The notes under the pieces: model-generated
What the model saw: only the letters and a program-made list of their open reading frames with translations
Database searches by the model: none
What the model was told of the DNA's origin: nothing
Program-made: the position numbers and the translations under genes
Part shown: positions 1,161 to 63,889 of the stretch, piece after piece
Layout of the letters: every line of letters starts with the position of its first letter
Position numbering within the stretch: position 1 is the first letter of the stretch
Virus record (IMG/VR): IMGVR_UViG_3300015371_000005
Span: 1-64,000 of that record
DNA: 64,000 nt
Direction: 5' to 3' (one strand)
DNA from: a virus

Positions 1161-1184
1161 GTATACTCCTTTCCTATCTGATTG

Positions 1185-2090
1185 TCAGCGGATCTTGCGC
1201 CTGATGGCAGGCTTACCGCCGTTGCTGGACTTCTTACGTGCGGCAGCGATGCCCTTCGTCGTTGCCTTCTTGGCCGTCCGGCGACCCGAGCTTCTGGTAG
1301 GGCTGTCGCCGTTGTCATCATCTTCCTCGTCGTCTACGTTCCGCCTGCTGCCCTTGCGCTCCTTGTCGAACACCGAGCCACGCCTACGGGACTTCTCTCC
1401 GACATCATCATCTTCGTTGTCAAAGCCCGCCGGCTCGTAGAACTCTTCCTCATCGGGCAGAGCAGTATAGCGCTCAAAGGCTTCGATGGTATCTTCGGCT
1501 TCATCGATGAGCTTCTGATCGGCCTTCGACAGCGGAACGTCCTCGTCTGTGGCCCACTCAACCTCGTACTGGACCTCAAAGCCCTCGCCATCTCGCGAGA
1601 CTTCGATATCGCGCCGATCGAGGTTGCGGCGCTTGTGCTTCTGGTTCAGCGCCTTGACAAGCCTATTGGCGCCACTGAGGATGCGGACCTGATCCTCCTC
1701 GCCGATGACCTTGCCCGACTTGTTCTCCTTAGGCGCGTCTCTGACGATGACCAGCAGCCAGAACTTGTAACGCCGGTCGAGATCGTCACGGCAGCCGGGA
1801 CAGGGCTCGCCTTCATCGTCGGGATCGAGACAGCGGACATCGGCCGTGTAGGTCGATCCATCCTTGCGCTCGAACTGGACGGGATGCACCCAGCCATCCC
1901 TGAAGTAGTTCTCGGTATCGAACGCCCGCATGGTCATTGTCTCGCCATCGGGGACGTTCACGAACCTGCCCTGGCGGCGCTTCTTGGGACGAGCCAGATG
2001 CTTGTCCACGGAACCGCCGCCAAGTCCTACCCGCTCTGAAGGCTTCGATCTTGCTGTTGCGGATGACCTCCGCGACCGAGGTGTTGCCAT
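1185..2090 (-). CDS. hypothetical protein, possible ssDNA-binding or replication accessory protein
   Basis: 301-aa ORF in the replication module. It has a Cys cluster (C-x11-CPGC) and an acidic then basic C-terminal tail. The functional guess is by context only. Confidence 0.6.
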   Translation of the reverse strand: MATPRSRRSSATARSKPSERVGLGGGSVDKHLARPKKRRQGRFVNVPDGETMTMRAFDTENYFRDGWVHPVQFERKDGSTYTADVRCLDPDDEGEPCPGCRDDLDRRYKFWLLVIVRDAPKENKSGKVIGEEDQVRILSGANRLVKALNQKHKRRNLDRRDIEVSRDGEGFEVQYEVEWATDEDVPLSKADQKLIDEAEDTIEAFERYTALPDEEEFYEPAGFDNEDDDVGEKSRRRGSVFDKERKGSRRNVDDEEDDDNGDSPTRSSGRRTAKKATTKGIAAARKKSSNGGKPAIRRKIR

Positions 2091-2185
2091 TCTTACTTCA
2101 GCGCTCCTTTCTGCTCTCTATGCTCTTAGCTGCTCTTGGGTTTATTGGCCGCCGTCTGGTGCAAAAATGACTATAGCATCGTCAA

Positions 2186-3325
2186 TCAGCGATGCACAAC
2201 AAAACTTCTATCAGCGGTCCGGATCAGCTCGCGTATACGATCCCTCTTGCCCCGTCGAAGCAAAGCATTCGCATCGAGCATATGACGTTTGACAATCCGA
2301 ACTCGGATGAAGGGCTCAAGCTTCTCAACAGCGCCGGGATGGTGCTCTCCCTCATCATCGTCCCAGCCCCAGATGCCATGGCTACCGGCGACATCATTGT
2401 CAAGGAACAATACAACCTCATTAGCGTATTCCCTGATGATCTGCACCTGCGTGTCGCTGAGCCAAGAGCCGCCGCACATGGCAGGTATACCTAGCTTCCA
2501 TAGGGACATGACATTGATCTCGCCCTCGTCGTAGACGTAGCTGTCCTGTTCGCCCCACTTGTCTATGCCGAAGATCACACGCGACTTGTCATAGGGCGCG
2601 AATCCGTACGCCTCACCACGCTTTGCAATAGACTTGGTGGTATCGCCGATGATGAGGTACTTGGGTTTGCGCCCCTTCTCCCAGGCTCGGCCCTTGATCC
2701 CAATTAGGTTGCCTTTGGGATCGCAGACGGGAATCGTTATGCGCCCGGAGATGCTGTCGTAGCCGATGGCCCACTCCTCCAGCTCTGCCGGCGTGAACCC
2801 GCGATCAAGCATGTAGCCCACATCGGGCTCGTCCTCGTACTCTTCTGCGTAATGGCCCCACTCCACGCCAAAGCGCTTGTGGTACATCTCCCACTCAAGC
2901 ATCGGCAGCTCGTACGAGATATCTTCAACTTCATTTTGCTTGATGCGCTTCTCGAATTCGGCCGCGATCCCGCCCTTGGGCTGGTTGAAACCGGGCGCGT
3001 AGTACTCCTTGATCCAGTTGGCCGCACGCAAGCGTGAGATGTGCTCCTGATCGGCTAGGAAGCTGATTGCATTACCCGAGCGCCCACAGCCATGGCACTT
3101 CCACATCGTGCACAGGCGATCATTCTTGGTACCGTCGTTCATGTAGGCCGATGGTCGTTCATCGCCATGCAGGTGCCCTGGAAACGGACAACTGAATTGT
3201 ACCTCGTCGATCGTCGCCTGGCTGATGTTGGAGATCTCCAGGTGCTCCAGGAAGTCAATGACATCTACACGCCGTAGGAACTCGACCGACTTGGCCTTGC
3301 GCCCGCCGGCATGCTTACGGCCCAT
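2186..3325 (-). CDS. dnaG: DNA primase, DnaG-like (CHC2 zinc finger plus TOPRIM)
   Basis: Zinc-finger segment CPFPGHLHGDERPSAYM...CHGCGRSGNAISF. TOPRIM acidic motifs EGEINVMSL and LFLDNDVAG. An alternative start at 3403 would overlap the upstream gene. Confidence 0.85.
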   Translation of the reverse strand: MGRKHAGGRKAKSVEFLRRVDVIDFLEHLEISNISQATIDEVQFSCPFPGHLHGDERPSAYMNDGTKNDRLCTMWKCHGCGRSGNAISFLADQEHISRLRAANWIKEYYAPGFNQPKGGIAAEFEKRIKQNEVEDISYELPMLEWEMYHKRFGVEWGHYAEEYEDEPDVGYMLDRGFTPAELEEWAIGYDSISGRITIPVCDPKGNLIGIKGRAWEKGRKPKYLIIGDTTKSIAKRGEAYGFAPYDKSRVIFGIDKWGEQDSYVYDEGEINVMSLWKLGIPAMCGGSWLSDTQVQIIREYANEVVLFLDNDVAGSHGIWGWDDDEGEHHPGAVEKLEPFIRVRIVKRHMLDANALLRRGKRDRIRELIRTADRSFVVHR

Positions 3326-3347
3326 CCCTGCGACAATGGGACTAAGG

Positions 3348-3731
3348 CTAGCTGGCACTGGCACCAACCCACCAGATTGCTCGCCAAACACATTGCACGC
3401 CATCAGCGCGAGCGATCGACATCATGTCTGCTGTCCCCTTGCCATAGCCGATCCCTACCACGAGCTTGGGCCTGCCGCGTGCCAACATCTCTCGGTTGCG
3501 TTTCGGGCCAGCGTACGCGCCCTTGCTCCAATCGGCGGGATAGGGGTCCACAGAAAGACCAAGAGCTTCGCTAGCACGGCGAGCAAGGCTGTCAACACCA
3601 GGTGCTTCGCCTTCGATGATGACAATGTGCGATCCATACTTGCGCTTGAGCGATGCAACTACGCCTAACACGTAAAGGTAGTTGGTAAAGTCACGAGGTC
3701 CACAGATCAGAATCCTCATCGGCGACTTCAT
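3348..3731 (-). CDS. DUF2493 / SLOG-family protein
   Basis: MRILICGPRDF...IIEGEAPGVDSLARRASEALGL...PADWSKGAYAGPKRNREML...GKGTADM matches the DUF2493 pattern from memory. Confidence 0.75.
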   Translation of the reverse strand: MKSPMRILICGPRDFTNYLYVLGVVASLKRKYGSHIVIIEGEAPGVDSLARRASEALGLSVDPYPADWSKGAYAGPKRNREMLARGRPKLVVGIGYGKGTADMMSIARADGVQCVWRAIWWVGASAS

Positions 3732-3734
3732 GGC

Positions 3735-4250
3735 TCAGCCATTGTAAATCAGCTCGCGGCGAATGTGCATCCACGTCTCTCCGAGCCAGTTCTGGCCCTC
3801 CTTGGCGCACTTCGGCCTGCCGCAAATGCAATTGCCCCAGAAGTTGTCGTGCCAATCGTTCTCCTCGATCAGCGCGCCGCCATCGGTGAAGAGGAGCTGT
3901 TGACGGATGTAGCCCCAATCGTCAACCTTCTTCTGGATCAGTTCGAGCATCACATCTACGCGGCGCTCATTCCACGCAATCAGCTCGTCTTCTGTCAGCT
4001 TCCAGCGGCGTCCGAGCTTCTTGGCCTGGTACGGAGTCCTGGCCTTGAGGATGATCGCCTGGCGCCACGGGTGCCCCTCGTGCTTGGCCGCCTGGAACTC
4101 ACCCTCGACGTGCGATCCATCATGCTCGACGTAGAAGTTCGACAACCAGTTGTGCTGGAGCTTACCATCGACTCTCAACGAGAACCAGACAACCGACTTG
4201 CGAGCACTAGACTGGGAGTTTGTCACCACTGCGCTTCTCGCGGAGGACAC
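3735..4250 (-). CDS. NADAR (DUF1768, YbiA-like) family protein
   Basis: Family-like motifs WLSNFY...EGEFQAAK...NFWG...GQNWLGETWMHIRREL. GTG start at 4250 with SD AAGGGAG 6 nt upstream. It overlaps the helicase gene end by 44 nt. Confidence 0.75.
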   Translation of the reverse strand: MSSARSAVVTNSQSSARKSVVWFSLRVDGKLQHNWLSNFYVEHDGSHVEGEFQAAKHEGHPWRQAIILKARTPYQAKKLGRRWKLTEDELIAWNERRVDVMLELIQKKVDDWGYIRQQLLFTDGGALIEENDWHDNFWGNCICGRPKCAKEGQNWLGETWMHIRRELIYNG

Positions 4251-5573: not shown

Positions 5574-6080
5574 CTAGCGCCGACGAGGCTTCTTCTTCTC
5601 CGATGCCTCGCTAGCTTCACGTTCGTTGTGCTGACGGATCGAACGCTCGACCGTCTCGCGATCATCAGAGATATGGATTTCCAGCACCTTGCTTGTCGCC
5701 TTGAGTGCACCGATAATGCGATCGTAAGCAGATTGCTGTTCGTCTGTGAGCTGTTCCTCGGCGTCCCAGTCAACATCCGCCAAAGCATTCATGTCAGCAC
5801 CATTGAGCTTCCATGCAATCATGTTGGGTCCAAGTGTGACGTTCGCGTACTGAGCGACAGGAACCAGCTCCGAGAGTTGACACGCGATCAGCACTTCACC
5901 GTTACCCAGATTGCGCGCAGATGCAATCAACGGCGATTCAACCTGCTTGTGGGCTGCTGACCTGACGATTGAGCCCGAGGTATCCTCAGTGTCCTCTACA
6001 CGAGCGGTAGTACGTGGCTTGGCCGCCGGCTTCTTCTTCACGAGCGACTTGCTCGCTTGCCTTGTCTTGATGGCTGGCAC
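5574..6080 (-). CDS. hypothetical protein
   Basis: 168-aa ORF with a GTG start preceded by AGGAGA and the TGACAAC junction motif. Confidence 0.6.
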   Translation of the reverse strand: MPAIKTRQASKSLVKKKPAAKPRTTARVEDTEDTSGSIVRSAAHKQVESPLIASARNLGNGEVLIACQLSELVPVAQYANVTLGPNMIAWKLNGADMNALADVDWDAEEQLTDEQQSAYDRIIGALKATSKVLEIHISDDRETVERSIRQHNEREASEASEKKKPRRR

Positions 6081-6097
6081 TTATGTCTCCTGTGTTG

Positions 6098-6805
6098 TCA
6101 TTTCATCATCCGCTCGATCGCCTTGAGCTGTCGCTCCAGCGCTCGTATCTCCGCTTGTTGTCGGTGCGTCAGTTTGTCCTTCCACGGCACGGTCGGGTCG
6201 CTGTGAGGAAGCTCCCAATCGCGCAGTTCAAAAGCACGAACGAGATCCCCCTCAAGCTCGATGTGACCAGTATAGCTCGTGCGCCTGTAGAGCGTGTTCA
6301 CTATCTCCTCTAAGCACTGTCCATGGGCCTGTAGGCGCCGTGCAGTGCGGAGGTTGTTCATGGTGAGATAGCGCGGAGGAACCGGGAAGCCGTGATACCG
6401 ACAGCAACCGACAATGGCTTTGTCAAATGCGTCCTGCGTCGTGTAGCTGACCTCGGGGAACAGCGCATCGTTGATCTGCTCGCGCGACTGATTGCGTGCT
6501 ATGCGACTACGAATCTTCTTGACAATCCTGTCAGGGAACCTGTAGCCCGTGCGCATGATGACCGCAAAGCGATGCATGTCCTCAGTAGTATCAACCAAAG
6601 TACCGCGTTCCTGGGCAAGAAGCTGAGCAATCTCATTAGCCTGAGCCACGGTCCAATAACGTTGTTTACCCTCCTCGCGATGAGGGAACAGGCGCTCTGG
6701 CAACTTGCCAAACTGCATCCAGCGATTGATCGTTCGCTTGGTACGGTTGGTAAGCTCCTCAAGCTCATCCATGTAAACCTTATTACGATCTAGCTTCAGG
6801 GGCAC
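6098..6805 (-). CDS. DNA-binding protein with N-terminal MerR/excisionase-type HTH
   Basis: YMDELEELTNRTKRTINRWMQFGKLPE HTH-like segment. It is the first gene of the leftward replication operon. The start is uncertain (GTG 6805 or ATG 6772). Confidence 0.65.
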   Translation of the reverse strand: MPLKLDRNKVYMDELEELTNRTKRTINRWMQFGKLPERLFPHREEGKQRYWTVAQANEIAQLLAQERGTLVDTTEDMHRFAVIMRTGYRFPDRIVKKIRSRIARNQSREQINDALFPEVSYTTQDAFDKAIVGCCRYHGFPVPPRYLTMNNLRTARRLQAHGQCLEEIVNTLYRRTSYTGHIELEGDLVRAFELRDWELPHSDPTVPWKDKLTHRQQAEIRALERQLKAIERMMK

Positions 6806-7014: not shown

Positions 7015-7524
7015 TTAGTAAAGCGCACTTGTATGCATCGACATTCTCTTTGACTTGAAGGGATCTATCTCAGTACCAGGACGCTTATCCTTGATTTTCT
7101 GAGGAGTGAATGGATTCCTGTTCCTTCCTGCATTCAGCGCTGATGTACAGTATCCATCAGCAACATGATTGGTAGCGCGCTTAGCCCATTCGATAGCCCA
7201 AGCATTAGGAAACAGATTGCCAAGCAGTTTGATTGCTTCACTGTAGAGCGGCTTCAGCTCTGATTGGCGGATCTTGTACTTGCCCATGAGCTGTCTCTCG
7301 ACCAGTTGGCTGTCAGTTTTCAGCAAGATGCTGTCAGCGCCGAGGGAGTGGGCATACTTGATCGCCACCACACAGCCGTTGTACTCGGCGTAGTTGTTGG
7401 TGTGCCAGCCGATGTAGCGCGCTATCACGTACTGCTCACCGTCAAGTTCAATGACAGATGCGAAGGCTGCGTGACCAGGGTTCCGAGGACGACACCCTCC
7501 GTCAAAATGAGCTACAGCTAGCAT
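7015..7524 (-). CDS. RNase H (RNase HI-like)
   Basis: Catalytic-type segments AHFDGGCRPRNPG, NNYAEYNG, LKTDSQLV and NHVADGY (D-E-D-D pattern). Confidence 0.8.
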   Translation of the reverse strand: MLAVAHFDGGCRPRNPGHAAFASVIELDGEQYVIARYIGWHTNNYAEYNGCVVAIKYAHSLGADSILLKTDSQLVERQLMGKYKIRQSELKPLYSEAIKLLGNLFPNAWAIEWAKRATNHVADGYCTSALNAGRNRNPFTPQKIKDKRPGTEIDPFKSKRMSMHTSALY

Positions 7525-11190: not shown

Positions 11191-11214
11191 CTATACTGAC
11201 AACCAGGGGGACGC

Positions 11215-11448
11215 ATGCGCTACATCGTCAGGCGCTACAGACGCATCTTCGGGCCACCGCCTGGCGAGGCCGTGCGTCTCGCTCTACTGATACCAGACAG
11301 ATTCCTGTGTGAACCAGATTGGGGGTTCGACACAATAGAATTCAAGTGGCCTATTCGCAAGCTTGACACGACGTATCACGATCGTCGTCTAGCAAAACGC
11401 CTAAAAGATCCGGAGTTTCGCGCGGCGTTTGAAACGCGCTGGACATAA
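11215..11448 (+). CDS. hypothetical protein
   Basis: 77-aa ORF. Its upstream CTGACAACC-AGGGGG-N4-ATG layout is the same as for other plus-strand genes. Confidence 0.45.
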   Translation: MRYIVRRYRRIFGPPPGEAVRLALLIPDRFLCEPDWGFDTIEFKWPIRKLDTTYHDRRLAKRLKDPEFRAAFETRWT

Positions 11449-41133: not shown

Positions 41134-41243
41134 GGTGATGCCGCCTTTGTTGTCAGATAAACATGGTGGTCCGGCAGCAGGTGGGTGTGAGGGGCCGCCG
41201 CCAGACCACCACCAACAGCCTACCAAAATGCGCCAACTTCTTG

Positions 41244-42999: not shown

Positions 43000-43153
43000 C
43001 CATTCCTCCTAGTGTTGTCAGTTACACCGCTGCCGGGTGCCGGCGCTCCCAGGGTCTGCCTGTTTAGACCGTGGCTCTTGTCACTCATGGAAGTTGAGCT
43101 AGAGCCAGCCACCGACACCACGGCAACGGCGCGATCAATCCTATCAAACCCCG

Positions 43154-43480: not shown

Positions 43481-43486
43481 TCTGTG

Positions 43487-43759: not shown

Positions 43760-44771
43760 AACCTGATTACATACAGTAATCAGTAGTGCCTACCTGATTT
43801 CCTATGTCATGCAAGTTTCGTGGCGCGTAAGAGACGTACTGGTTTCACCTGAGGCACACTGGTTTACATCCTTGGCCCAGGCCCCCCGATCAACCGGATT
43901 TCGGCGCATGGGTGCCCCCGATTGGCGGGAACTTGATTGACATGAAACCAAATTGATAACAAACCCGATTGTCGTGCGTTGGGCGTTTCAAAATGAGCCG
44001 ATCTGAGGCTCTACTCTGTAATCAGGTTTCATGGAATTTGCAGGGTAATCAGATTCAGGGGTACTAGGACCCGGGTCGCGCGTAAATATCATTTGTTACA
44101 AGCTTCGCCAGCGGGGGCGCGTGCGGGGGAGGGTCTCGTCCTAGGACGCAATCTTGTTTCAGACAATTCCATTGCAGATAGTCTAGTAATTCGATTGTTC
44201 CGTGGTGGTCCCTTCTAGCTAAGGAGGGGTGGAAGGGGGCGGAAGGGGCAGAGGGAGCGGAGGGGGCGGGATCGGCTGGGCAGGGGAGACTCTGAGGGAG
44301 TCCCTACGGGAAGCGGACGGATCGGTGGGGACTGACGAGAGGTACTGGCCTAGCTGGCGCCTGGACGGACGAGGGACTGACCTACCGGCGCCTGGTCACT
44401 GTTCTCCGCGCCAGCCGAACCCGATTGACTGGAAACTAGGTTGTCAGGGGCCATTTGTCTATGAAACCTGATTGTAGAGCGGGGGTAGTTGGGGCTCTCG
44501 TCTCCGTAGTAACTACTGATCTTCCCTCAGGGTGAACTACTGAGATTCATCTAGTAGATTGATCAACCAGATTCTATGGAATGCCTGCAAATGAGCATGT
44601 TTTGGGCCGATTTGGCTTGCAATCAAATAGACCGTGGAAACCCGATTGATACGCCCGATTCAGGTCCTAGGTAAATCAGGTTGAATGAGCGGCAATGTGC
44701 CAAGCAGGGTGACAAATAGTTCGGATGAAACCCCTGCAAATCAGCACATTCGGTGAGTTGTAAATCAGGTT
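43760..44771. repeat. array of at least 10 exact AACCNGATT motifs in both orientations, plus degenerate copies
   Basis: Plus-strand copies start at 43760, 43892, 43962, 44418, 44465, 44565 and 44639. Inverted AATCAGGTT copies start at 44020, 44674 and 44763. About one copy per strand would be expected in the whole window. Confidence 0.8.
44221..44300 (+). repeat. polypurine G-tract cluster (G-quadruplex-capable)
   Basis: At least 8 runs of 3 or more G within 80 nt (AAGGAGGGGTGGAAGGGGGCGGAAGGGGCAGAGGGAGCGGAGGGGGCGGG...). Confidence 0.7.
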
Positions 44772-44789
44772 TGCGGGAAACTACGGATA

Positions 44790-45690
44790 TCGCTGCGGGG
44801 GCCGGGTGCCGTTCAGTGGAGTGCAGCACCGAGGACCACCCGGCAGGCGAAGCGGGTGGGGCGGGAGCATCGCCACGGGAGCCTCACCCATGCCAGCCCT
44901 GCGGCTGGCGCAAGCGAACGGGGGTTGCCCCGGGGCGCGTTGTCACCCTTGCGACGGCGCGCTGGACATACCCGCAAGGGGCGTGCATTCCACCGAACGG
45001 ATGCTCGCGGGACTGGCAAGTGGCGCGAAGGAAGCGTTGCCTGCGCGGTGGGAAACCGGGTTTACTCCCGTTCGGTCTCACGGCGCAGGACCGGGCACAT
45101 ACACTGGCCCGGGAAAGCGACTGATGTGCGGTCACCCAACAGTGCGAATGCATGCATACGCAAGTACGCTGCAAATGGAAACTGCCAACTAGTTTCCCCG
45201 ATCCTGTAGTTCCCGCCGAACGGCCGAGTGTACGCCGGTAAGGCGCGGAAGGGGAGGGTGAGGCGAATGGAAACAAGCGTCAAGTACGCACCAGGGACCT
45301 ATGCACGTATCACCCGGCCACGGTGGGTGGGCGTATGAATGGCGGTCAGTCAAGCGGGTTACCCCCGTGCGGTGAAACCGAACGTGAGCAAGCGTACGCA
45401 ACGCTTGGAAGGATGGCGCAGTAAGCGCAGCGGATGCCCGCTCGTACGGGGGCTAGGAAACCGGGCCGACGCCGGACTGAAATAAGGTTGCGAAGTAACG
45501 CGGTGTACCGTCCAGCGAGGGTTTCCCGCTGTCGATGGGTGACGTGTGAACGCTGTGAGTAAACGGTGAGCACATCCTGCCATGAGTGAGGACAAGCGAG
45601 CGTACGCAATGATCCGGGCAAGTCTCGCGCTAAGAACGCGAGTGTCAATGTGGCTTCAAAACCCGCTTGCCCATTGCCTGACAACACCAC
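44790..45690 (+). ncRNA. candidate large structured non-coding RNA or structured leader (class unknown)
   Basis: No credible ORF. More than 12 hand-paired hairpins with 5-8-bp stems. Recurrent GAAA and RGUAA loops appear only on the plus strand. GTACGC recurs 5 times. The region is co-oriented with the downstream genes. Confidence 0.45.
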
Positions 45691-45706
45691 CCGAAAGGAC
45701 GGCATC

Positions 45707-46702: not shown

Positions 46703-46793
46703 CCCGTGAGGAGAGCTGCCACCAAAGGTGACGGCTGTCCCAACGGCAGCAATCCCGTTGCCGCTGACAACCAAACTCCCATAGGAGGGAACC

Positions 46794-46988
46794 ATGTCGA
46801 GCTTCACCATCCAGCGTCGCACCGCCCCGCGCAAGCCGTGGAAGGCGACCAAGCACACCGTCACCGCCAAGACGGCCAACGACGCGCTGCGTAAGTTCGG
46901 TTGCGCCGAGGCGTTCAAGTCCCCGCGCGTGAAGGTCGCCACGGGCCATCGCACCGGGCGCCAGTACCGGGCGGTCAAGGCCGCTTAG
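46794..46988 (+). CDS. hypothetical basic protein (64 aa)
   Basis: Preceded by CTGACAAC ... AGGAGGG. Confidence 0.55.
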   Translation: MSSFTIQRRTAPRKPWKATKHTVTAKTANDALRKFGCAEAFKSPRVKVATGHRTGRQYRAVKAA

Positions 46989-50036: not shown

Positions 50037-50438
50037 TAGGGTGTCGAATTTCGTGGGCAAAGATAAGTCCGATCTAAGGGAAGGTAAGGTGGTCGTTTGA
50101 AGACGAAGCGCCCGGTGGCCCCTTGGACTCCGGCGGGTACACTCTCAATCTAACTAACACTCGTAAGCAGCGCAGAGTAGCATCGTAGCTGTAACCGTTA
50201 CTGCTGTGCTGTAGGCGAGCACACAAGCCTGTCAAGCAGGCTGCTGGTACCGATAGGGTGGCGCTCAACGAGTTTGTCACCCCGCTACTAGCCCTAACGT
50301 CAGGTCCGAGTGCGTGTCGAGTCAGCGTTGTCAAATGGATTCGCGATCTATTAGGCGACCAGCATCGAGCACTCCACGTATTCGGACCTGAGGTAAGGGC
50401 GGTAAATACCGCTGACAACACCACCACCAGGAGGAACT
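50037..50438 (+). other. 400-nt non-coding, hairpin-containing leader
   Basis: No credible ORF. Long-range stem AGGTCCGA/TCGGACCT, local hairpins GCCTG-TCAA-CAGGC and GCGG-TAAATA-CCGC. It ends in CTGACAACACCACCACC-AGGAGG. Confidence 0.4.
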
Positions 50439-51382: not shown

Positions 51383-51754
51383 ATGAAGTACACCAAGAAG
51401 ATTGCAGCATTGCTCGCAATCGCAATGCTTGGCGCTCTCGCTTTCACAGCCGCAGCGCAAGCTTCAACGCCAGGACAGCGTAACGCTCTGAGCAAGGCTC
51501 AGACGTACCTGCGTGTCTTGCCCTTCTCGAAGGAGGGGCTGTACGACCAGCTAAGGTACGAGAAGTTCTCTCGGTCGAATGCCCGTTGGGCCGTCAATCA
51601 CGTTCACGCGAACTGGTACGCACAGGCTGTCAGGAAGGCCAGGCAGTACCTGAAGGTAATGTCGTTCTCTCGTCAGGGACTCATCGAACAGTTGGAGTAC
51701 GACAAGTTCACACACTCGCAAGCCGTGTACGGAGTTAGCAAGGTGTACCACTGA
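51383..51754 (+). CDS. Ltp-family (host cell surface-exposed lipoprotein-like) protein, putative superinfection exclusion
   Basis: Signal peptide plus two repeats: NALSKAQTYLRVLPFSKEGLYDQLRYEKFSRSNARWAV and AVRKARQYLKVMSFSRQGLIEQLEYDKFTHSQAVYGV. Both match the Ltp repeat pattern. No lipobox Cys is present. Confidence 0.75.
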   Translation: MKYTKKIAALLAIAMLGALAFTAAAQASTPGQRNALSKAQTYLRVLPFSKEGLYDQLRYEKFSRSNARWAVNHVHANWYAQAVRKARQYLKVMSFSRQGLIEQLEYDKFTHSQAVYGVSKVYH

Positions 51755-51989
51755 CAACACCAAACCAGGAGGTGATCGTACGGGCCATGTAGTAACCGAT
51801 GAGGATTGCAATTGGGTTTACGATTACCCAAATGACCTCTTCTCACGGGCGATGCGCGAAGCCGCTCGTCGCAATTTCAACAAACTTGTCGGACTTGACG
51901 AACCGGATGAGCCATCTGCTATAGTTGGCTTCAGTAAGGCTCGGCAACGATCCGCCGAGGACAACACACCCACCACAGGAGGTAGTACC

Positions 51990-52385: not shown

Positions 52386-52422
52386 CTGCTGCCAATCTGA
52401 CAACACACCTATAGGAGGAAGC

Positions 52423-52992
52423 ATGCCGACCATGGATGACATTCGCGCTGACGTTGTGCAGCGCACCAAGCTACTTGCAGAAGCCGTCAACAAGCTCAGC
52501 ATTGCCGATAGCTACGTTGGCGAGGCTGACGCTGCAATCGATAACGCATGGAAGGGCTGGCCGCTTGCCTACAACGACAAGTCAAGCGCTTGCAACGCCA
52601 TTGGCACGATCATCGGGATGACAAGCGAGAACGTCAAGCGCGATCTCATGGCAAGCGTCACGCAGCTTGGCCGGCTCGTGGCCCGCGATGTGATCGCTCC
52701 GGTTGCGCGACAATCAGCTTTCGAGCCTGTCGTTTGGCTGACTTCCAACAACTACATGCCGCCGCTGCGCTCGATCGATGAGGCTGAAGCAATCTGGCAG
52801 CTTGAGGGCTTGGAAGATGACGACGTTTGGGGCGCATTTGTCGAAGCGCTTGAGTCCGCGCTAGAAGAAGAGCAGGTTTACATGGCTCAGCCCGAGTACG
52901 ACAATGCGCTTTACGTAGTCAACCTCGCACAGTGGGAGCACGTTGACAGTGACTCTGACAACCTCAACGATGAGTGGCAGGTGAAGGCATGA
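52423..52992 (+). CDS. hypothetical protein
   Basis: 189 aa, preceded by CTGACAAC ... AGGAGG. Confidence 0.6.
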   Translation: MPTMDDIRADVVQRTKLLAEAVNKLSIADSYVGEADAAIDNAWKGWPLAYNDKSSACNAIGTIIGMTSENVKRDLMASVTQLGRLVARDVIAPVARQSAFEPVVWLTSNNYMPPLRSIDEAEAIWQLEGLEDDDVWGAFVEALESALEEEQVYMAQPEYDNALYVVNLAQWEHVDSDSDNLNDEWQVKA

Positions 52993-53174: not shown

Positions 53175-53374
53175 TGGACCCTATCGCTAACCTGATTGAG
53201 CAGCGTGAGATAGCCAAGCGCATACTTGACGAGCCCCTCATGAGCGATGATGCTGCAAGCAGACTGGCAGAGCTTGTCATCGCGCTTGACGAATGGCGCT
53301 TGATGGGCGGCTGGGACCCCTACGACAAGGCCGGAAGCTTAGTCATCAACGAACCTTACGCAGGAACAGACTGA
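53174..53374 (+). CDS. hypothetical protein
   Basis: 66 aa. TGATG overlap with the upstream gene. Confidence 0.6.
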   Translation: MDPIANLIEQREIAKRILDEPLMSDDAASRLAELVIALDEWRLMGGWDPYDKAGSLVINEPYAGTD

Positions 53375-53394
53375 CAACACCACCAGGAGGCATC

Positions 53395-57904: not shown

Positions 57905-58150
57905 ATGACTGAGGACGAGCTTCAAGCAACTTACGACAGACTCGTAGCCTACCGAGCGCGGACAATCAAGTATTACGACGAGTGTCCGGATGGAGATCCG
58001 CGCAAGGCACAGGCACTAGACAAGCTTCAAGAACTGAACGAGCGCATCAACGAGGTTGAGAGCGAGTTCGACCAGTTCGACAAGGAAGAGACCAAGCAAG
58101 CAGGTTGGACACCGATGTCACACCCGTATCATCCCGACGACCTGTTCTGA
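57905..58150 (+). CDS. hypothetical protein
   Basis: 81-aa ORF. Confidence 0.6.
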   Translation: MTEDELQATYDRLVAYRARTIKYYDECPDGDPRKAQALDKLQELNERINEVESEFDQFDKEETKQAGWTPMSHPYHPDDLF

Positions 58151-58162
58151 CAACCAGGAGGC

Positions 58163-58345
58163 ATGATGTACCACGATCTCTACATGGGTGAGCCTAAGCT
58201 GGCCCACGAGGAAGACTTCGATACCAACTTGACAACCGGACAGGTTGTCGCCCGCATAAGCCAAGCAGTCATCGATGGCGAGAAGCACGGCGATGAGCTG
58301 ACCATCGTTGTCAAGACATTCAGTCGGCGTCGCAAGATTGCCTGA
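58163..58345 (+). CDS. hypothetical protein
   Basis: 60 aa, preceded by CTGACAACC-AGGAGG. Confidence 0.6.
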   Translation: MMYHDLYMGEPKLAHEEDFDTNLTTGQVVARISQAVIDGEKHGDELTIVVKTFSRRRKIA

Positions 58346-58360
58346 CAACCGGGAGACACC

Positions 58361-58606
58361 ATGAATACCAACAACACACTTCGCTTCGCAGACGGAGACA
58401 CGCTCAACACGGTGCTGAGCATGATGAAAGGCTATACCGTGGACATGCCGGCGGCCAAGGATTACGTCGGAACGACAACGGTAGTTCTCGTCAGCGCCAA
58501 TCCGAACGGCGTGCTCGTCAACGAAGCTGACAATACCGGAGCACCGATCAAGAACGCAACATGGCTCATTCCTTGGGATGAGATCAAAGAGATCATCGTA
58601 GTCTGA
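58361..58606 (+). CDS. hypothetical protein
   Basis: 81 aa, preceded by CTGACAACC-GGGAGA. Confidence 0.6.
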   Translation: MNTNNTLRFADGDTLNTVLSMMKGYTVDMPAAKDYVGTTTVVLVSANPNGVLVNEADNTGAPIKNATWLIPWDEIKEIIVV

Positions 58607-58624
58607 CAACCAGGAGGCACCACC

Positions 58625-59488
58625 ATGCCGTACGATACCAAGAAGTACACCATCACTGTCAACGACATTCAGTACGATGTCGATGAAGAGGAGACCGACA
58701 GTGGGAACGACTTCACGATCTCGCTCGATGGCGAGCCCGTGTTCGAGGGGCTGGAAGGACACATCGCCTACGAGCAGGACGCTGACAGCCCACGCGATTG
58801 GGAAAACGTGGGTACCATGCTCGTCAACTACGATCACTACAACCTAGGCGACGGCAATAACGACGAGTTTGAGGTTGAGTGCGATCAGTGCGGAGGCGCA
58901 GGCTGCTATCCCGATCCCGACAGCGATCACGAACTTGATTGCGAAAAGTGCAATGGCGATGGCTATATCACGCTAGATCCGGCCAGCTACTACCGCAAGG
59001 AGCGCGGCGCTCGCGTCGTCCTGCCGCTGTTCGTCTACGAGCACAGTGGAATCACCATGAGCGCTGGCGCTGCAATCGCTGACCGCGCCAAGCAGGGTGA
59101 CGTTCGCTCGACCGGGCGCTTCGTAGGCGACGATGCTGGTTGGGATACCTCGTTCGTCGGGTTCATCTTCGACACGCCCGAGGGCATCGATAAGTGCTTC
59201 GGAGACTCGGCTGGTATTGCGCATGTAGCCGGTGTGCTTGACGATCAGATTGAGGAGGCGCTGCGCAGCGAGGTGTCAATCTACGCCAGCTACCTTGAGG
59301 GCGATGTCGTCTACTTCCTCACCTACGACGAGGAGACCGAATACGGCGATGGCTGCGGTGGCTTCATTGGCGACCACGAGGAGTGCAAGAATCAGCTCTT
59401 CGCCTCGCTTGAGCAGGCAATCAAGATTCGCCTGGACGAGTACAAGGAGCGTGCCGAATGGGCAGCGCGAGACACGATCACGATCTGA
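58625..59488 (+). CDS. hypothetical protein with inserted DnaJ-type zinc-finger pair
   Basis: Zinc-finger motifs CDQCGGAG and CEKCNGDG. Preceded by CTGACAACC-AGGAGG. Confidence 0.65.
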   Translation: MPYDTKKYTITVNDIQYDVDEEETDSGNDFTISLDGEPVFEGLEGHIAYEQDADSPRDWENVGTMLVNYDHYNLGDGNNDEFEVECDQCGGAGCYPDPDSDHELDCEKCNGDGYITLDPASYYRKERGARVVLPLFVYEHSGITMSAGAAIADRAKQGDVRSTGRFVGDDAGWDTSFVGFIFDTPEGIDKCFGDSAGIAHVAGVLDDQIEEALRSEVSIYASYLEGDVVYFLTYDEETEYGDGCGGFIGDHEECKNQLFASLEQAIKIRLDEYKERAEWAARDTITI

Positions 59489-59884: not shown

Positions 59885-60417
59885 CTCCGATTCAACCAGG
59901 TGACATCTTCGTCAAGCCATATGGCAAGAACGAAATCGTATTGATGATGTTACCTCGTACGAAACGATCGGCCAAGCAACCCTACGCTCGGCTCTCTTCC
60001 TCGCCTGTCACCTTCGATTCGGCGTGGTGGGATAGCCGTGACATGGTAGGCGGCGCTCATAAGAACCTGCGCTACGTGGGCACCGTGCCCAAGCAGCACA
60101 TGGTCCGGCTCCTCAAGCAACGTACACGCAAACGCAGCACACTCAAGGATAGGCTCATGGCTGACTCAATGAAGTTCACAGAGCGTAGGATCATGGACGA
60201 GGACTCGGGCGTTCAGTACACGCCGTTCATCACACACGATGGCCGCGTGGGCTACGAATGCACCGACACCGCAACGGGAAGGTTCGAGTTCCTGTACTTC
60301 AACCCGAGCAACGGTAGCGATGATGGCGTTCCCAACGTCTTTGTCTACCAGGGTACGCAGAACGATCCCTACGCAGACGGCGCGGTTCACCACTACACAG
60401 TGCTTGACAACAACTAG
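59881..60417 (+). CDS. hypothetical protein
   Basis: 178 aa. ATGA overlap with the upstream gene. Confidence 0.6.
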   Translation: MTPIQPGDIFVKPYGKNEIVLMMLPRTKRSAKQPYARLSSSPVTFDSAWWDSRDMVGGAHKNLRYVGTVPKQHMVRLLKQRTRKRSTLKDRLMADSMKFTERRIMDEDSGVQYTPFITHDGRVGYECTDTATGRFEFLYFNPSNGSDDGVPNVFVYQGTQNDPYADGAVHHYTVLDNN

Positions 60418-60425
60418 GAGGAATC

Positions 60426-60731
60426 ATGCTTGCACTAGCAGTCAGAGTCGTGCAAACCGTCCATCGCAATCTGGATGGCGCTGAAGTAATCGGGTTGATC
60501 CACACATCGACTGACAGGAACAACGAGTACTGGGAGCGTGTCTACGAAGTTGCGTGGCAACGCCCTGACCAGTGTGGTACTCATCGCGTTCACATTGACA
60601 GCGACGATCACGGTGCCTGCTTCGTCGGTCACTACGACATGAACCGCGAGGAAGCGCTTGAGGACATGATCGTCCGCGCCGGATGCACACCGCTACCGAT
60701 GCCCGTCAAGGCACGTAAGGCTCGCCGGTAG
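60426..60731 (+). CDS. hypothetical protein
   Basis: 101 aa with SD AGGAGG. Confidence 0.6.
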   Translation: MLALAVRVVQTVHRNLDGAEVIGLIHTSTDRNNEYWERVYEVAWQRPDQCGTHRVHIDSDDHGACFVGHYDMNREEALEDMIVRAGCTPLPMPVKARKARR

Positions 60732-60752: not shown

Positions 60753-62087
60753 TTAGATTTCTGTCAACGAGGCAAGCGGGAACTGGAAGCTGATTGCCAC
60801 CATTGCCGTCTGCGTATCCTTGTTGACACTGTTGACCGTGCCCGTCTTGCCGTAGTACTTCGAGCGCGGGTTCGTGATCTTCACCTTGTCACCCGCCGCA
60901 ATCTCGTTCACGGGCGGCGGGGGCGGCGGGGGCGGTGCCGATGCGACGATGACCGGGTGCGCAACCTTGTTGGTATCGCCGTCAACGTCCTTGACAGACA
61001 GGTTCACATTCTTTGTCCCTGGCTGCTGGAAGGTGAACGACAGCTTGGAACCGGTTCCCAGCGGGTACACGGCTCCGGAGGTCTCATCGGTCCAGGTGAA
61101 GGTGGCTGATCCGTCACCGACATCCGATGCGGACCCGTCGAAGGCCACGGGCTGGCCGATGACCGGGGCCGCAGGGCTGAAGGTGAAGCGTGCGACAGGC
61201 ACCTTGTCAGTCGGCGGCGGGGGCGGGGGAGGCGTGATACCGCCAGCCAAGCGACGCGAGCCCCACACCTGACCGTCCGGTGCGTTGGCCGGCGTGGCGA
61301 GCTGGAAGCCGGCGCGCGTCCCGGGATCGCCTGGTGCCTTGAACACGGCGTTTGTCAAGTCAGGTCCCTTGGTTCCGGTGATACCTGATTGCGCCACGTT
61401 GAACTTGGTTCCCCCGTCATAGGCGTTGTAACGCGAGATGTAGCCATTGGATGGCGGGTTGTCAGCATGGTCATCGAGGATGCGCGTGCCGTAGTTGGAA
61501 GCCACGAAGGTATTGTGCTCACAGCGGACACGAGCAACGCCTGACAAGCAGAAATCCCAGCCATCCTGATGTGTAACCAGATTGTCCTCAAACACGTTGT
61601 CGGAGTTGTTCCAGTCAACCATCATCACTGCAACTGCATTGTCGTGGAACCAGTTACCACGGATGACCACGAACTGGCTGTCCATGACCTGGATCGAGTC
61701 GGCGTGCATGACGTCAACCTGGGCGTGGTTGCGGAACTCGCAATCCTCCACGAGCACGCCTCGCACCGTTCCCATCTGGATTCCATCGCCCGAGCCGCCA
61801 TCGGACAGGAAGTTGCGGAAGATGATGCCGGCGCGTCCCGTACCCCAGTTCACGCCGCTTCCGAGGATCTGGAACTGCCCCTCGTAGGACTGAGCGGTGA
61901 CCGACATGTCGTTGACTTTCTTGCCGCCATCAATGACAAGGTTCATGTCAACGGATGCCTTGATAATGTGCTGGCCGGTGAAGGTACAATCCTTCAGCGT
62001 GATCCCCTTGTTGGAGATCGTGCCTCCGGTGATCGTCTCGCCGGTGACTGTCTGACCAGCAGCAATGCTGCCGATGGCAACACTCAT
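60753..62087 (-). CDS. beta-helix / PKD-domain / KOW-like C-terminal protein (depolymerase or receptor-binding candidate)
   Basis: N-terminal parallel beta-helix-like repeats. Two poly-Pro linkers (PPPPPPP, PPPPPPPP). PKD-like segment ARFTFSPAAPVIGQPVAFDGSASDVGDG...NLSVKDVDGD. C-terminal AAGDKVKITNPRSKYYGKTGTV. It is the only minus-strand gene in this block. Confidence 0.7.
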   Translation of the reverse strand: MSVAIGSIAAGQTVTGETITGGTISNKGITLKDCTFTGQHIIKASVDMNLVIDGGKKVNDMSVTAQSYEGQFQILGSGVNWGTGRAGIIFRNFLSDGGSGDGIQMGTVRGVLVEDCEFRNHAQVDVMHADSIQVMDSQFVVIRGNWFHDNAVAVMMVDWNNSDNVFEDNLVTHQDGWDFCLSGVARVRCEHNTFVASNYGTRILDDHADNPPSNGYISRYNAYDGGTKFNVAQSGITGTKGPDLTNAVFKAPGDPGTRAGFQLATPANAPDGQVWGSRRLAGGITPPPPPPPTDKVPVARFTFSPAAPVIGQPVAFDGSASDVGDGSATFTWTDETSGAVYPLGTGSKLSFTFQQPGTKNVNLSVKDVDGDTNKVAHPVIVASAPPPPPPPPVNEIAAGDKVKITNPRSKYYGKTGTVNSVNKDTQTAMVAISFQFPLASLTEI

Positions 62088-62199: not shown

Positions 62200-62237
62200 G
62201 GTGGCTGCCACCGACAACACCGACAAGGAGAATGACA

Positions 62238-62741
62238 ATGGCGGTTGTAGGAACCAAGGAGATCCTTGGTCAGGAGTACGACATCGATGTTAGTAAGTAT
62301 GGCGTGTTCTACATCAAGGATGTCGCGGGAGAAGACGGCAGGAGCGACATCCTGGGCAGCGGCGATACGCTTGACCAGGCAACAGCAAAGGCTCGCATCG
62401 AGCTGAACAAGCGCAAGGTCAAGGTGCAGGTGCCGTTCATCACCAAGAACGGCCAGCGCGGCATGGCCACCGCTTTGCACGGTCGCAATCGCAAGGTACT
62501 GACCACGCTGGCTGACGGAGCAAAGCAGGCGGTTGACCAGCACACTCGCGTCTTCAAGCCCGACATGCCAAAAGAAGTGCTCGACTCTTACCTTGACAAG
62601 GTGCAGCGAGAGCGCGAGCTTACGGCTGAGATCAGGAAGATTGACAAGGAGTGGGAGTTCTCTCTCGGCCAGACAGTCATCGCCGCCATCAATGAGGCTG
62701 CCGCAGCAAAGGCTAAGCCTCTGGCGCGAATCAAAAGCTGA
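62238..62741 (+). CDS. hypothetical protein
   Basis: 167 aa with SD AAGGAG. Confidence 0.6.
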   Translation: MAVVGTKEILGQEYDIDVSKYGVFYIKDVAGEDGRSDILGSGDTLDQATAKARIELNKRKVKVQVPFITKNGQRGMATALHGRNRKVLTTLADGAKQAVDQHTRVFKPDMPKEVLDSYLDKVQRERELTAEIRKIDKEWEFSLGQTVIAAINEAAAAKAKPLARIKS

Positions 62742-62879
62742 GTTTGGGGGATGACCGGGCACCCCGCTCCCTCAGTCAATCAAGGCTTGCGATAAGGCTG
62801 CTAGGTAACGTGGAGCATGCAGCCTCGGTCATCATAAAGGGTGCCGGTCCGTACTGACAACGCCAACCAAGGAGATAAC

Positions 62880-63182
62880 ATGCCAACCGTAGCCAACATG
62901 CCTGGTGCTGATCTGGAAGTCACGTTTGCATCCGGCAAGACCAAGACAATCTTCATGCCACGTCTGCTCGTGCAGACACAGAATGCCGAGTTCAAGCGCG
63001 ACTACGGCATTTTCCTGCCCGGCGTCAACAAGCTCAGCCCGACTGTCAAGCAGCTTCGTGAGGAGTATGAGCTTGACTACTTCTTCGACGGGCCGGTCAA
63101 GACCTGGAAGGACTGCGCGGCAGTGATGCGCCACTTCTACAATCTGTGTGACAAGCATATCAAGGAGAGCATGAATGAGTAA
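62880..63182 (+). CDS. hypothetical protein
   Basis: 100 aa, preceded by CTGACAAC ... AAGGAG. Confidence 0.6.
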   Translation: MPTVANMPGADLEVTFASGKTKTIFMPRLLVQTQNAEFKRDYGIFLPGVNKLSPTVKQLREEYELDYFFDGPVKTWKDCAAVMRHFYNLCDKHIKESMNE

Positions 63183-63330
63183 CGAGGCTGACATCACTGA
63201 GGTTGTCGATGAGCTTACCGACGAGCTTGACCCGATTCGCATCGAGAACGAGGCAGAACGGCTCGGCATCACCGCCGAAGAGCTACTGCATCGCATCACC
63301 AAAGAGACGCTGAGCAGGTTGGGTGACTGA
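63175..63330 (+). CDS. hypothetical acidic small protein (51 aa)
   Basis: Hand-translated as MSNEADITEVVDELTDELDPIRIENEAERLGITAEELLHRITKETLSRLGD. Confidence 0.45.
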   Translation: MSNEADITEVVDELTDELDPIRIENEAERLGITAEELLHRITKETLSRLGD

Positions 63331-63563
63331 TGCTCAAACACACGAACATCCCGCAACCAAACGAATGGGATGGTGATCGCCTGCGCCGTCTGCGTCTGTC
63401 ACAAGGATTGACAATGCGTGAGCTTGCTCAGCGCGCAAAGATTGGCCATGATCTGATCTCGCGCTTTGAAAGCGGCTGGCGTAGCCCGAACATCGAGACA
63501 GTGTACCGCTTGCAACGAGGCTTGCAATGTTCATGGCGCGAGCTACTAGGACCTGACAACTGA
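63330..63563 (+). CDS. XRE-family HTH regulator
   Basis: LRRLRLSQGLTMRELAQRAKIGHDLISRFESGWRSPNIETVYRL. Confidence 0.75.
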   Translation: MLKHTNIPQPNEWDGDRLRRLRLSQGLTMRELAQRAKIGHDLISRFESGWRSPNIETVYRLQRGLQCSWRELLGPDN

Positions 63564-63733
63564 TGTTGAGAATGTGGACAATCAGGGTCTGCCGATGTGG
63601 ATACCCACTCGGTGCTACACTGGCAGCAATTCGCTTGTACATATGTCCTGATTGCGGGAGACTGACAGTTCCACTTGAAGATGTAACCGAAAGAGTAATC
63701 GTAAGGGAGTTTGTAAATGAGCAAGACAACTAG
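63563..63733 (+). CDS. small zinc-ribbon protein (56 aa)
   Basis: Hand-translated, with CRCG...CPDCG pairs. Confidence 0.45.
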   Translation: MLRMWTIRVCRCGYPLGATLAAIRLYICPDCGRLTVPLEDVTERVIVREFVNEQDN

Positions 63734-63884
63734 CCGTCCGTTCGTTCCCGTAGGCTCATACGACACGAAGGCACGCGCTAGCAATGCCTGTGTCGTGCTC
63801 AACCGCGAGAAGCCCGATCAGCACTGGGAGCCCTGTCCCTCGCCCAAGAATGCTGAGCGCTACGCCATCGTCCGAAAGAAGTGA
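63717..63884 (+). CDS. hypothetical small protein (55 aa)
   Basis: SD AAGGGAG. Hand-translated as MSKTTSRPFVPVGSYDTKARASNACVVLNREKPDQHWEPCPSPKNAERYAIVRKK. Confidence 0.45.
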   Translation: MSKTTSRPFVPVGSYDTKARASNACVVLNREKPDQHWEPCPSPKNAERYAIVRKK

Positions 63885-63889
63885 CAACC

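Follow-up and report, generated by a model that had tools for sequence, protein, structure and literature searches.

The 8-nucleotide (nt) motif CTGACAAC was analyzed in a 64,000-nt window of viral DNA (positions 1 to 64,000 of the IMG/VR record IMGVR_UViG_3300015371_000005). A preliminary description of this sequence had proposed the motif as a stoperator-like signal at gene boundaries. The data showed that a set of oriented copies stands just 5' of the Shine-Dalgarno (SD) sequence of about a quarter of the early genes, and that divergent relatives keep the same word ahead of the same genes; therefore, the motif is a real and, by comparative criteria, functional regulatory signal. We favour the reading that it acts at the mRNA level, as an operator or enhancer in the translation-initiation region (probability about 40%), over a stoperator-like DNA site, an RNA processing site, a copied cassette or linker, and a promoter element.

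Motif copies at ribosome-binding sites

The exhaustive count against shuffled sequence that the preliminary description had called for found exact CTGACAAC 28 times on both strands, in comparison with 2.36 +/- 1.41 copies in dinucleotide-preserving shuffles, and the word was the commonest of all 8-mers in the window. It likewise ranked first among 8-mers in the 40 nt preceding starts, where it stood before 13 genes, while SD-containing words reached 5 at most. The binomial probability that at least 13 of 28 copies fall within these start-upstream windows, which make up 2.8% of the sequence space, was 1.4e-13. Thirteen exact copies, one exact orphan copy (51751), and four one-mismatch variants (60404, 62211, 1181, and 6094) were located 0-13 nt 5' of an SD. 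All SD-adjacent copies in the window were co-oriented with their gene and lay 11-22 nt 5' of the start codon. The motif had been described as always having the orientation of the gene; this was true of every copy adjoining a ribosome-binding site (RBS), but overall 24 of the 28 exact copies ran along the local genes and four were opposed (515, 5202, 35896, and 48779). Orientation followed individual genes (11196, +; 61458, -), not the half of the genome. The copies discussed here are the following.

45678..45685 (+), exact CTGACAAC(ACCACC), 9 nt to the SD and 21 nt to the ATG; first gene of the + block, 45707-45847
46764..46771 (+), exact motif, 11 nt to AGGAGG and 22 nt to the ATG; gene 46794-46988
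50412..50419 (+), exact CTGACAACACCACC in a 402-nt gap, 9 nt to AGGAGG; gene 50439-51356
51751..51758 (+), exact motif, orphan; its TGA is the stop of 51383-51754, and the strong SD AGGAGG is followed by very short open reading frames (ORFs) only
52397..52404 (+), exact motif in a 145-nt gap, 8 nt to AGGAGG; gene 52423-52992
52955..52962 (+), exact motif within the 3' end of 52423-52992, frame xCT-GAC-AAC
53371..53378 (+), exact CTGACAACACCACC; its TGA is the stop of 53174-53374; 6 nt to AGGAGG; gene 53395-54420
58147..58154 (+), exact motif; its TGA is the stop of 57905-58150; 1 nt to AGGAGG; gene 58166-58345
58342..58349 (+), exact motif; its TGA is the stop of 58166-58345; 1 nt to GGGAG; gene 58361-58606
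58603..58610 (+), exact motif; its TGA is the stop of 58361-58606; 1 nt to AGGAGG; gene 58625-59488
62854..62861 (+), exact motif in a 138-nt gap, 7 nt to the SD; gene 62880-63182
11196..11203 (+), exact motif upstream of the + gene 11215-11448, which is embedded in the minus-strand block
43014..43021 (-), exact motif, 3 nt to AGGAGG; first gene of the minus block, 42757-42999
41149..41156 (-), exact motif in a 127-150-nt gap, 15 nt to the ATG at 41133; gene 40816-41133
60404..60411 (+), variant TTGACAAC, 4 nt to AGGAGG; gene 60426-60731; the L124 and L125 orthologues have the exact motif
62211..62218 (+), variant CCGACAAC, 6 nt to the SD; gene 62238-62741; the L124 and L125 orthologues have the exact motif
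1181..1188 (-), variant CTGACAAT, a common variant in the family; its TGA is the stop of 1185-2009; 9 nt to the SD; gene 699-1160
6094..6101 (-), variant ATGACAAC; its TGA is the stop of 6098-6805; 2 nt to the SD; gene 5574-6080
44440..44447 (-), exact copy with no start nearby, in the 2.2-kb non-coding region; the + strand reads GTTGTCAGGGG

The copy at 45678 stands at the end of the 2.2-kb non-coding region and forms an inverted pair with that at 43014, and the copy at 52955 lies 11-26 nt ahead of the next start (52974 GTG or 52989 ATG). Downstream of the orphan copy (51751-51800), the nearest called genes begin at 51852 or 51990. The + block with its motif copies extends past the right edge of the window, with copies at window-equivalent positions 68316, 72407, and 73138 in a 9-kb extension.

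The preliminary description had placed every exact copy that it listed correctly (+ strand: 11196, 45678, 46764, 50412, 51751, 52397, 53371, 58147, 58342, 58603, 62854, and 63553; - strand: 41149 and 43014), and its variants with one mismatch at 60404, 1181, and 6094 were confirmed as well. However, 14 exact copies, mostly intragenic, had been overlooked. As had been reported, the upstream gene ended on the TGA of the motif at 51751, 53371, 58147, 58342, 58603, 1181, and 6094, and no gene ended at 41149, 43014, and 50412. Five of the positions listed as sites just upstream of an SD did not bear this out. The copy at 63553 lies in the 3' end of the XRE-type helix-turn-helix (HTH) gene 63330-63563 and no SD follows it; 11909 has no SD and 26420 has two mismatches, both representing a different or marginal class; and 47478 and 63881 are GTGACAAY placed between an SD-like element and the ATG, another class. 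In this second family-conserved arrangement, TGACAAC stands between the SD and the start of late genes as GGAG-GTGACAAC-(0-5 nt)-ATG. It was seen at 30075-30082 and 32450-32457 (-), at 47478 and 63881 (+), and at late-gene junctions of the loci L001-L018 and L036, for example at the gene following the capsid gene in many relatives.

Inside genes, eight sense copies were observed in comparison with 1.1-1.8 under synonymous-codon and codon-order shuffles; Asp-Asn codon usage, which had been feared as the cause of the counts, was therefore rejected. Hexamers containing TGACA were 2.5-3.4-fold over-represented inside genes on both strands in comparison with synonymous shuffles (observed/expected: TTGACA 70/20, TGTCAA 52/23, TGACAA 73/24, and TTGTCA 42/17). 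Avoidance of restriction sites was also rejected as the cause of this bias, since a shuffle forbidding 20 absent palindromes left the expectation unchanged. The general TGACA-word bias roughly predicts the intragenic 8-mers, and intragenic copies were therefore not counted as functional sites; the real signal is the set of oriented copies adjoining the RBS. The words CTTGACAA and GCGCTTGA, considered as a second signal, turned out on either strand to be largely coding words read in frame. Chi-like sites and primase recognition sites were set aside by reasoning only, because gene-wise orientation and tight SD adjacency are unlike either.

The element was a sharply bounded 8-mer, and the 20 nt upstream of it carried no information. 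Positions +1 and +2 after the motif were A or C. The extension to CTGACAACACCACC was exact at three sites, as reported (45678, 50412, and 53371), but the ACCACC part was a degenerate A/C-rich spacer with no conserved half-site. The spacer between motif and SD contained 4% T in comparison with 19% at the equal position of motif-less genes, and the predicted unpaired probability of the motif was 0.60 in comparison with 0.45 for controls (P=0.003). No dyad partner, fixed-distance upstream element, or conserved sequence was found upstream of the motif, and hairpins near it were not in excess over control gaps (P=0.49).

The motif was restricted to certain gene classes. It was present at 12 of 44 junctions in the + block, 2 of 19 in the minus-strand early genes, 2 of 12 in the replication genes, and 0 of 23 in the structural genes. 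When only genes preceded by a gap of 10 nt or more were counted, the motif stood at 10 of 22 in the + block and at 0 of 12 structural genes (P=0.006). Even where the gap was 61 nt to 2.7 kb wide, all nine copies stayed 2-11 nt from the SD, which ties the motif to the initiation region and shows that it does more than fill short gaps. Motif genes had stronger SDs than other genes (4.65 in comparison with 3.37, P=0.006) and wider upstream gaps (median 91 nt in comparison with 8 nt), which marks them as sites of de novo initiation.

Conservation of the motif among relatives

Syntenic early regions of relatives were retrieved through a motif-preceded protein. On the coding strand, CTGACAAY occurred 26 times per 21 kb in locus L124 (18 SD-adjacent), 20 times in L125 (11 SD-adjacent), and 15 times in the window (10 SD-adjacent), while L121, L122, L126, and L127 had 3-5 copies (1-3 SD-adjacent) and L123 had none. 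The 4.2-kb contig L138 was also motif-dense, with the motif at 3 of 10 genes. These motif-dense relatives (L124, L125, and L138) had only ~50% protein identity to the window.

When 43 SD-adjacent CTGACAAY sites of the family were pooled, positions 1-7 were invariant and position 8 was C (36 sites) or T (7 sites); A was favoured at -1 and +1. The distance from motif to SD was 0-16 nt (mode 8-10) and that from motif to start 11-28 nt. The upstream ORF ended on the TGA of the motif at 27 of 54 family sites and within 9 nt upstream at eight, and at 19 no stop was nearby. In gene families common to the window, L124, and L125, the state of the motif was kept: it was present at 46794, 53395, 60426, and 62238, and its absence was likewise kept in the family of 48217 and at the helicase. 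The junctions orthologous to the 53371 site carried the motif in L122 as well as in L124 and L125.

The motif appears to be specific to one lineage of uncultured soil phages. In 80 metagenome loci found through the helicase (identity <=47%), no comparable word was found upstream of the SD; the structural regions of relatives found through the capsid protein had no junction motif, and a scan of viral contigs for motif plus SD gave no matches. A match to Micrococcus phage Kurnik was due to chance, with 0 motif copies. The abundant repeat in loci L038 and L039 (IMG/VR 3300004634_000002 and 3300025534_000007) was rejected as pentapeptide-repeat coding sequence; several adjacent pentapeptide-repeat genes there give about 50 copies of CGGACCTG with a 15-nt period.

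The identical 11-mer GTTGTCAGGGG, which is the reversed motif plus GGG, was present at 44440-44450 of the window and at 571-581 of L125, in both cases in non-coding DNA upstream of the + block; comparison of its flanks between the window and L125 found no conservation. In L125, GGTTCGATTCCC, a sequence resembling a tRNA T-arm, lies at 1160-1185, just upstream of the first gene of the + block.

Known oriented motifs and the role of the element

Stoperators revealed an unusual way of silencing transcription, in which gp71 of mycobacteriophage L5 blocks or modulates transcription elongation in an orientation-dependent way. The stoperator consensus that the preliminary description had quoted proved correct on the L5 genome (locus L132), in which we measured stoperators directly. 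On the sense strand they read aCTTGACA(G/T)CCACC, and the SD and start codon follow directly; of the 17 intergenic sites, 8 lie 11-18 nt from the start. This layout (aCTTGACAKCCACC-SD-ATG) is that of the window, CTGACAAC(ACCACC)-SD-ATG; the stoperator analogy is thus anatomically sound and apt. Since L5 stoperators also adjoin the SD, SD adjacency alone is no argument for a role at the RNA level. The motif further resembles Cluster A stoperators in being a short asymmetric site with about 20 copies per genome in a single orientation relative to transcription, in its TGACA core, in the A favoured at -1, in the upstream TGA stop that is often embedded, and in a lone opposite-orientation copy, which in L5 is at position 200; like Cluster A and CA phages, the window phage probably has an actinobacterial host. 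At L5 38786-38798 a stoperator is followed by AGGAGGAAACATG, yet the annotated next start is 123 nt off; the site may mark an unannotated or re-annotated start in the GenBank record.

The part of the stoperator-like reading that concerns family membership did not stand. The 13-bp asymmetric stoperator consensus has an invariant position 1 and invariant positions 9-13, G........TCAAG (PMC5559632), whereas only 8 bp are conserved in the motif, its complement GTTGTCAG has TCAG instead of TCAAG, and its CCACC-like part is degenerate and shifted by 2 bp. The Cluster A consensus GGTGGMTGTCAAG and the related repeats TGTCTATTGTCAA of Cluster CA Rhodococcus phages served as comparison systems; with up to two mismatches, GGTGGMTGTCAAG had 4 matches in the window in comparison with 3.5 expected by chance, none at junctions. 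No gp71/phrog_357-type repressor, integrase, or partition system (parABS) was found in the 64-kb window, the 9-kb extension (together about 73 of 112 kb), or the loci of relatives. Searches with L5 gp71 by tblastn and phmmer against the window and 44 family loci gave only a generic HTH match in the HTH-HNH protein 194-625 (-). L5 gp71 matches phrog_357 at 3e-79, but 194-625 has no phrog_357 match and was rejected as a gp71-like repressor. In contrast to the motif-free structural junctions of the window, L5 has four sites in its structural arm. Of the motif copies in long gaps, 9 of 12 were close to the start, in comparison with 0 of 4 such sites in L5, which lay near stops or promoters (Fisher P=0.019). 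The window phage also has no genes in common with Cluster A phages. The motif therefore does not appear to be a member of the Cluster A/CA stoperator family.

The second comparison was with the start-associated sequence (SAS) of Cluster K mycobacteriophages, a 13-bp element, GGGATAGGAGCCC, with the SD core inside it and 3-9 bp between it and the start codon (PMC3203893); its function is still unknown according to PMC11373665 and PMC12699233. A subset of SAS has 17-bp imperfect inverted repeats (ESAS) upstream; no ESAS-like inverted-repeat partner was found upstream of the motif. The motif is like SAS in being asymmetric, in one orientation (roughly 11-19 SAS copies), and confined to the non-structural half of the genome. 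Like SAS, it is tied to translation starts, mostly ATG, sometimes holds the upstream stop codon, and is kept across divergent subclusters and at orthologues with lineage-specific copy number and one reversed copy per genome. However, there is no sequence similarity: the motif has 8 nt instead of 13, belongs to an unrelated uncultured ~110-kb phage family, and does not include the SD, which follows it after 0-16 nt; its distance to the start codon is 11-28 nt. With up to two mismatches, the SAS consensus had 2 matches in the window in comparison with 1.4 expected, neither at a gene start, and the motif does not appear to belong to SAS.

C/A-rich elements upstream of the SD serve as small RNA (sRNA) targets or translational enhancers, for example in the GcvB targets of enterobacteria, and the RegA operators of phage T4 are a related case. 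The motif shares with these its small size, its single-stranded, C/A-rich character, its place immediately 5' of the SD or across the initiation region, and its occurrence throughout a set of mRNAs that would form a regulon, but its eight positions are far more strictly conserved. The probably actinobacterial host would be without GcvB, and actinobacteria are generally not known to encode Hfq. No gene for a complementary sRNA was found, the only non-coding anti-motif being GTTGTCAGGGG at 44440; a conserved sRNA around it was rejected because its flanks are unconserved. The T1-like phage TLS has 18 oriented 21-nt intergenic repeats upstream of starts, with function unknown, that have been compared with stoperators (PMC11447400). 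Unlike the motif, those repeats are of unrelated sequence, about 76 nt upstream of starts, and not SD-adjacent.

The motif is a third, sequence-distinct case of a genome-wide oriented phage motif associated with starts or junctions. Oriented gene-boundary motifs of this kind are known from only a few phage groups, and SAS has been unexplained for more than a decade. The L5 comparison showed that stoperators are themselves start-associated on the sense strand, which blurs the split between a translational SAS and a transcriptional stoperator and suggests re-examining the two side by side. The case described here has useful properties: the same 8-mer is kept across about 50% protein divergence, one small basic protein co-varies with it, and the copy number, from 0 to about 26 per 21 kb among relatives, makes phylogenetic profiling for a trans-acting factor possible.

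In the favoured mRNA-level reading, aCTGACAAY together with its T-poor, A/C-rich spacer would be a cis-acting element in the 5' part of the initiation region of a defined subset of early (non-structural) mRNAs. It would be read as single-stranded RNA by a sequence-specific trans-acting factor, the binding of which would co-ordinately tune ribosome loading on the target genes, whether by activation or by repression. Targets would mostly be genes without translational coupling to the upstream gene, and the function would resemble a translational operator or enhancer regulon such as that of the T4 RegA operators or that proposed for Cluster K SAS. This reading draws on the SD-adjacent position, kept also in long gaps, the restriction by gene class, the stronger SDs and wider gaps of motif genes, the sharp and predicted unpaired 8-mer with its T-poor spacer, the conservation among relatives, and the candidate factor below. 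A phage protein, an RNA, or a host component might serve as the factor; the only correlated candidate is the following.

46794..46988 (+), 64-aa basic protein, pI 11.8; candidate trans-acting factor by correlation only

Within the compared regions, this was one gene confined to motif-dense phages, and the motif preceded its homologue in all six known cases (the window, L124, L125, L138, L139, and L140). The AlphaFold model of the protein was confident (pLDDT 87.5) and had a beta-beta-alpha-alpha-beta-beta order, but its fold had no significant match in Foldseek, PDB, or Pfam. It is doubtful, though conceivable, that this protein recognizes CUGACAAY in about 25-40% of early mRNA leaders, its own included, and switches translation of these mRNAs on or off together. 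If it does, start-associated signals, which have awaited a functional explanation in Cluster K since 2011, would represent a widespread convergent strategy, here with a tractable protein-RNA pair.

Several points weigh against the mRNA-level reading. The data do not directly distinguish recognition of RNA from that of DNA, and genuine DNA-level L5 stoperators share the SD-adjacent sense layout and the TGACA core. A/C-rich composition may be all that lies behind the difference in accessibility, the distance to the SD varies (0-16 nt), and three to four copies adjoin no start (44440, 35896, 7688, and 63553). The candidate protein had no detectable similarity to RNA- or DNA-binding folds in Foldseek, PDB, and Pfam searches, and its correlation with motif density comes from partial loci and is confounded by phylogeny.

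The main rival is a DNA-level reading, in which a monomeric protein with an asymmetric site, a repressor or another regulator, would bind the duplex GTTGTCAG/CTGACAAC and, like L5 gp71, block or modulate elongation in the early operons, depending on orientation. We hold this to be possible but unlikely. The layout identical to that of the measured L5 stoperators, with its embedded TGA stop, the shared TGACA core with a CCACC-like 3' extension at three copies, the probably actinobacterial host, the approximately 20 oriented copies (24 of 28 along local transcription), and the lone reversed copy in the regulatory region, as at L5 position 200, all argue for it, and HTH proteins are available (XRE-type, 63330-63563; weak sigma-r4/LuxR-like, 35247-35534; weak HTH, 34212-34463). 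These are to be set against the missing TCAAG and 13-bp consensus with only 8 bp conserved, the lack of a gp71/phrog_357 homologue, integrase, or parABS in the regions searched, the motif-free structural junctions, and the start-proximal position of long-gap copies. Moreover, a separate, classical-looking operator repeat, AAACCYGATTG, is already present in the divergent regulatory region, and no prophage relatives were found among 185,579 reference genomes in a search sensitive to close relatives only.

A role in RNA processing, which the preliminary description had put beside the stoperator, would have a sequence-specific endoribonuclease of host or phage cut polycistronic early transcripts at or next to CUGACAAY, leaving mRNAs that start just 5' of the SD. 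Phages T7 and T4 process transcripts with RNase III sites and RegB, respectively. The position of the motif between a stop and the next SD at 35 of 54 family sites (27 with its own TGA and eight with a stop within 9 nt) would suit such cleavage, as would its place after long leaders before the first gene of both divergent blocks, its single-stranded, A/C-rich, predicted accessible nature, and the strictly sense orientation of junction copies. However, we know of no nuclease with CUGACAAY specificity, no hairpin is associated with the motif (P=0.49), 19 of the 54 sites have no upstream ORF ending nearby, and the window holds no candidate endoribonuclease gene, the HNH proteins 47611-47982 and 194-625 being typical DNA-endonuclease types; this role is improbable. 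It is still harder to credit that the motif has no dedicated function and reflects ancestry or copying of RBS cassettes, a micro-homology linker for module exchange, or a preferred stop-codon context. The early regions are highly mosaic and the motif lies exactly at gene boundaries, some copies share longer strings (CTGACAACCAGGAGGCA at 58147 and 58603), and there is the general TGACA bias; but eight positions are invariant over 36 SD-adjacent sites in at least eight phages while flanks and SD vary, the motif also occurs where no gene ends, its state is kept at orthologues despite ~50% protein divergence, and it is absent from structural junctions, which also have stops and SDs. Least credible of all is a promoter element, with the motif as the -35 or -10 of a promoter for host or phage-modified RNA polymerase at each downstream gene. 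CTGACA is one position off TTGACA, some L124 gaps before motif genes have terminator-like hairpins, and a weak -10-like hexamer stands at a suitable distance from two copies. However, the motif is 0-1 nt from the SD at six or more sites, so that transcription would start inside or after the SD if the motif were a -10, and beyond the ATG if it were a -35. There was no partner element at a fixed distance, promoter-like matches numbered 0 in the regulatory region in comparison with 1.5 expected from shuffles and were not linked to the motif elsewhere, and three copies precede consecutive ~200-bp genes (58147, 58342, and 58603). An association with sigma-70 promoters or terminators was rejected. 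In a sigma-70-type promoter the -35 and -10 hexamers stand 16-18 bp apart, upstream of a transcribed SD; no partner hexamer of this kind was found for the motif.

The phage and its genome

The window is part of a ~112-kb uncultured siphovirus-like phage from rhizosphere soil (JGI metagenomes); an exact-protein match places it within a 112,325-bp JGI rhizosphere metagenome sequence. Homologues sit on many contigs of 105-119 kb, which points to a family of ~110-kb phages. No close or cultured relative was found in the GenBank phage collection by megablast or tblastn. The host is probably actinobacterial, because the Rpf-type transglycosylase has only Actinomycetota among the bacterial relatives found. 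Leftward genes run from about 43.0 kb and rightward genes from 45.7 kb, with the 2.2-kb gene-free region between these divergent transcription blocks. Besides the genes listed below, the window encodes a DnaB-type helicase, a DnaG-type primase, SF2 and UvrD-like helicases, a uracil-DNA glycosylase, and HNH endonucleases.

30088-31161 (-), major capsid protein, PF03864
18143-25117 (-), ORF of tape-measure size, 2324 aa
34675-35250 (+, opposite strand inside the minus block), Rpf-type transglycosylase-domain protein, PF06737, 1.2e-13
3348-4250, 7015-7524, 8891-9334, and 43154-43480 (-), accessory genes
51383-51754 (+), superinfection-exclusion-like lipoprotein, phrog_4980, 2.7e-32
60753-62087 (-, opposite strand within the + block), beta-helix and PKD protein, moron-like
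63330-63563 (+), XRE-family HTH protein, 77 aa, HTH_3, 5.9e-12; absent from the output of the gene caller
194-625 (-), HTH-HNH endonuclease-type protein; its N-terminal HTH resembles that of L5 gp71 (13 of 40 identical)

The accessory products are YAcAr/SLOG-family and NADAR-domain proteins (adjacent), an RNase H-like protein (RVT_3), the uracil-DNA glycosylase, and a GNAT acetyltransferase adjoining the regulatory region. The antisense motif copy at 515 sits in the sequence coding for the recognition helix of the HTH-HNH protein. An RF-1-like identity of 35957-36355 (-) was rejected, with a score of 20 bits against a cutoff of 35 and the GGQ motif absent.

Palindromic restriction sites are extremely avoided in the window. 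TTAA was observed 0 times in comparison with 64 expected, and it was also missing in every family locus examined (L121-L127, L133, and L138-L140). CTCGAG, GTCGAC, GAGCTC, CTGCAG, GGATCC, CCGCGG, ACGCGT, AGGCCT, GGGCCC, and TTCGAA were absent from the window, and CAGCTG occurred only twice.

In the gene-free divergent region (43481-45706), AAACCYGATTG / AATCAGGTTT occurs about eight times, in either orientation; an inverted pair of 22 nt (44014-44035 and 44458-44479) is among these copies. A G-rich unit of 9 bp is repeated in tandem at 44224-44276, and the stretch at 44.8-45.65 kb is GC-rich and has long-range inverted repeats. Rfam gave nothing at the gathering threshold in the whole window and nothing at E<=1 in 43.0-45.76 kb, and the fold z-scores for a large structured RNA at 44.8-45.7 kb were -1.4 and -2.2. 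The region could harbour operators, an origin, or a non-coding RNA. The XRE-type protein and the operator-like AAACCYGATTG repeat suggest that conventional transcriptional control exists beside the motif.

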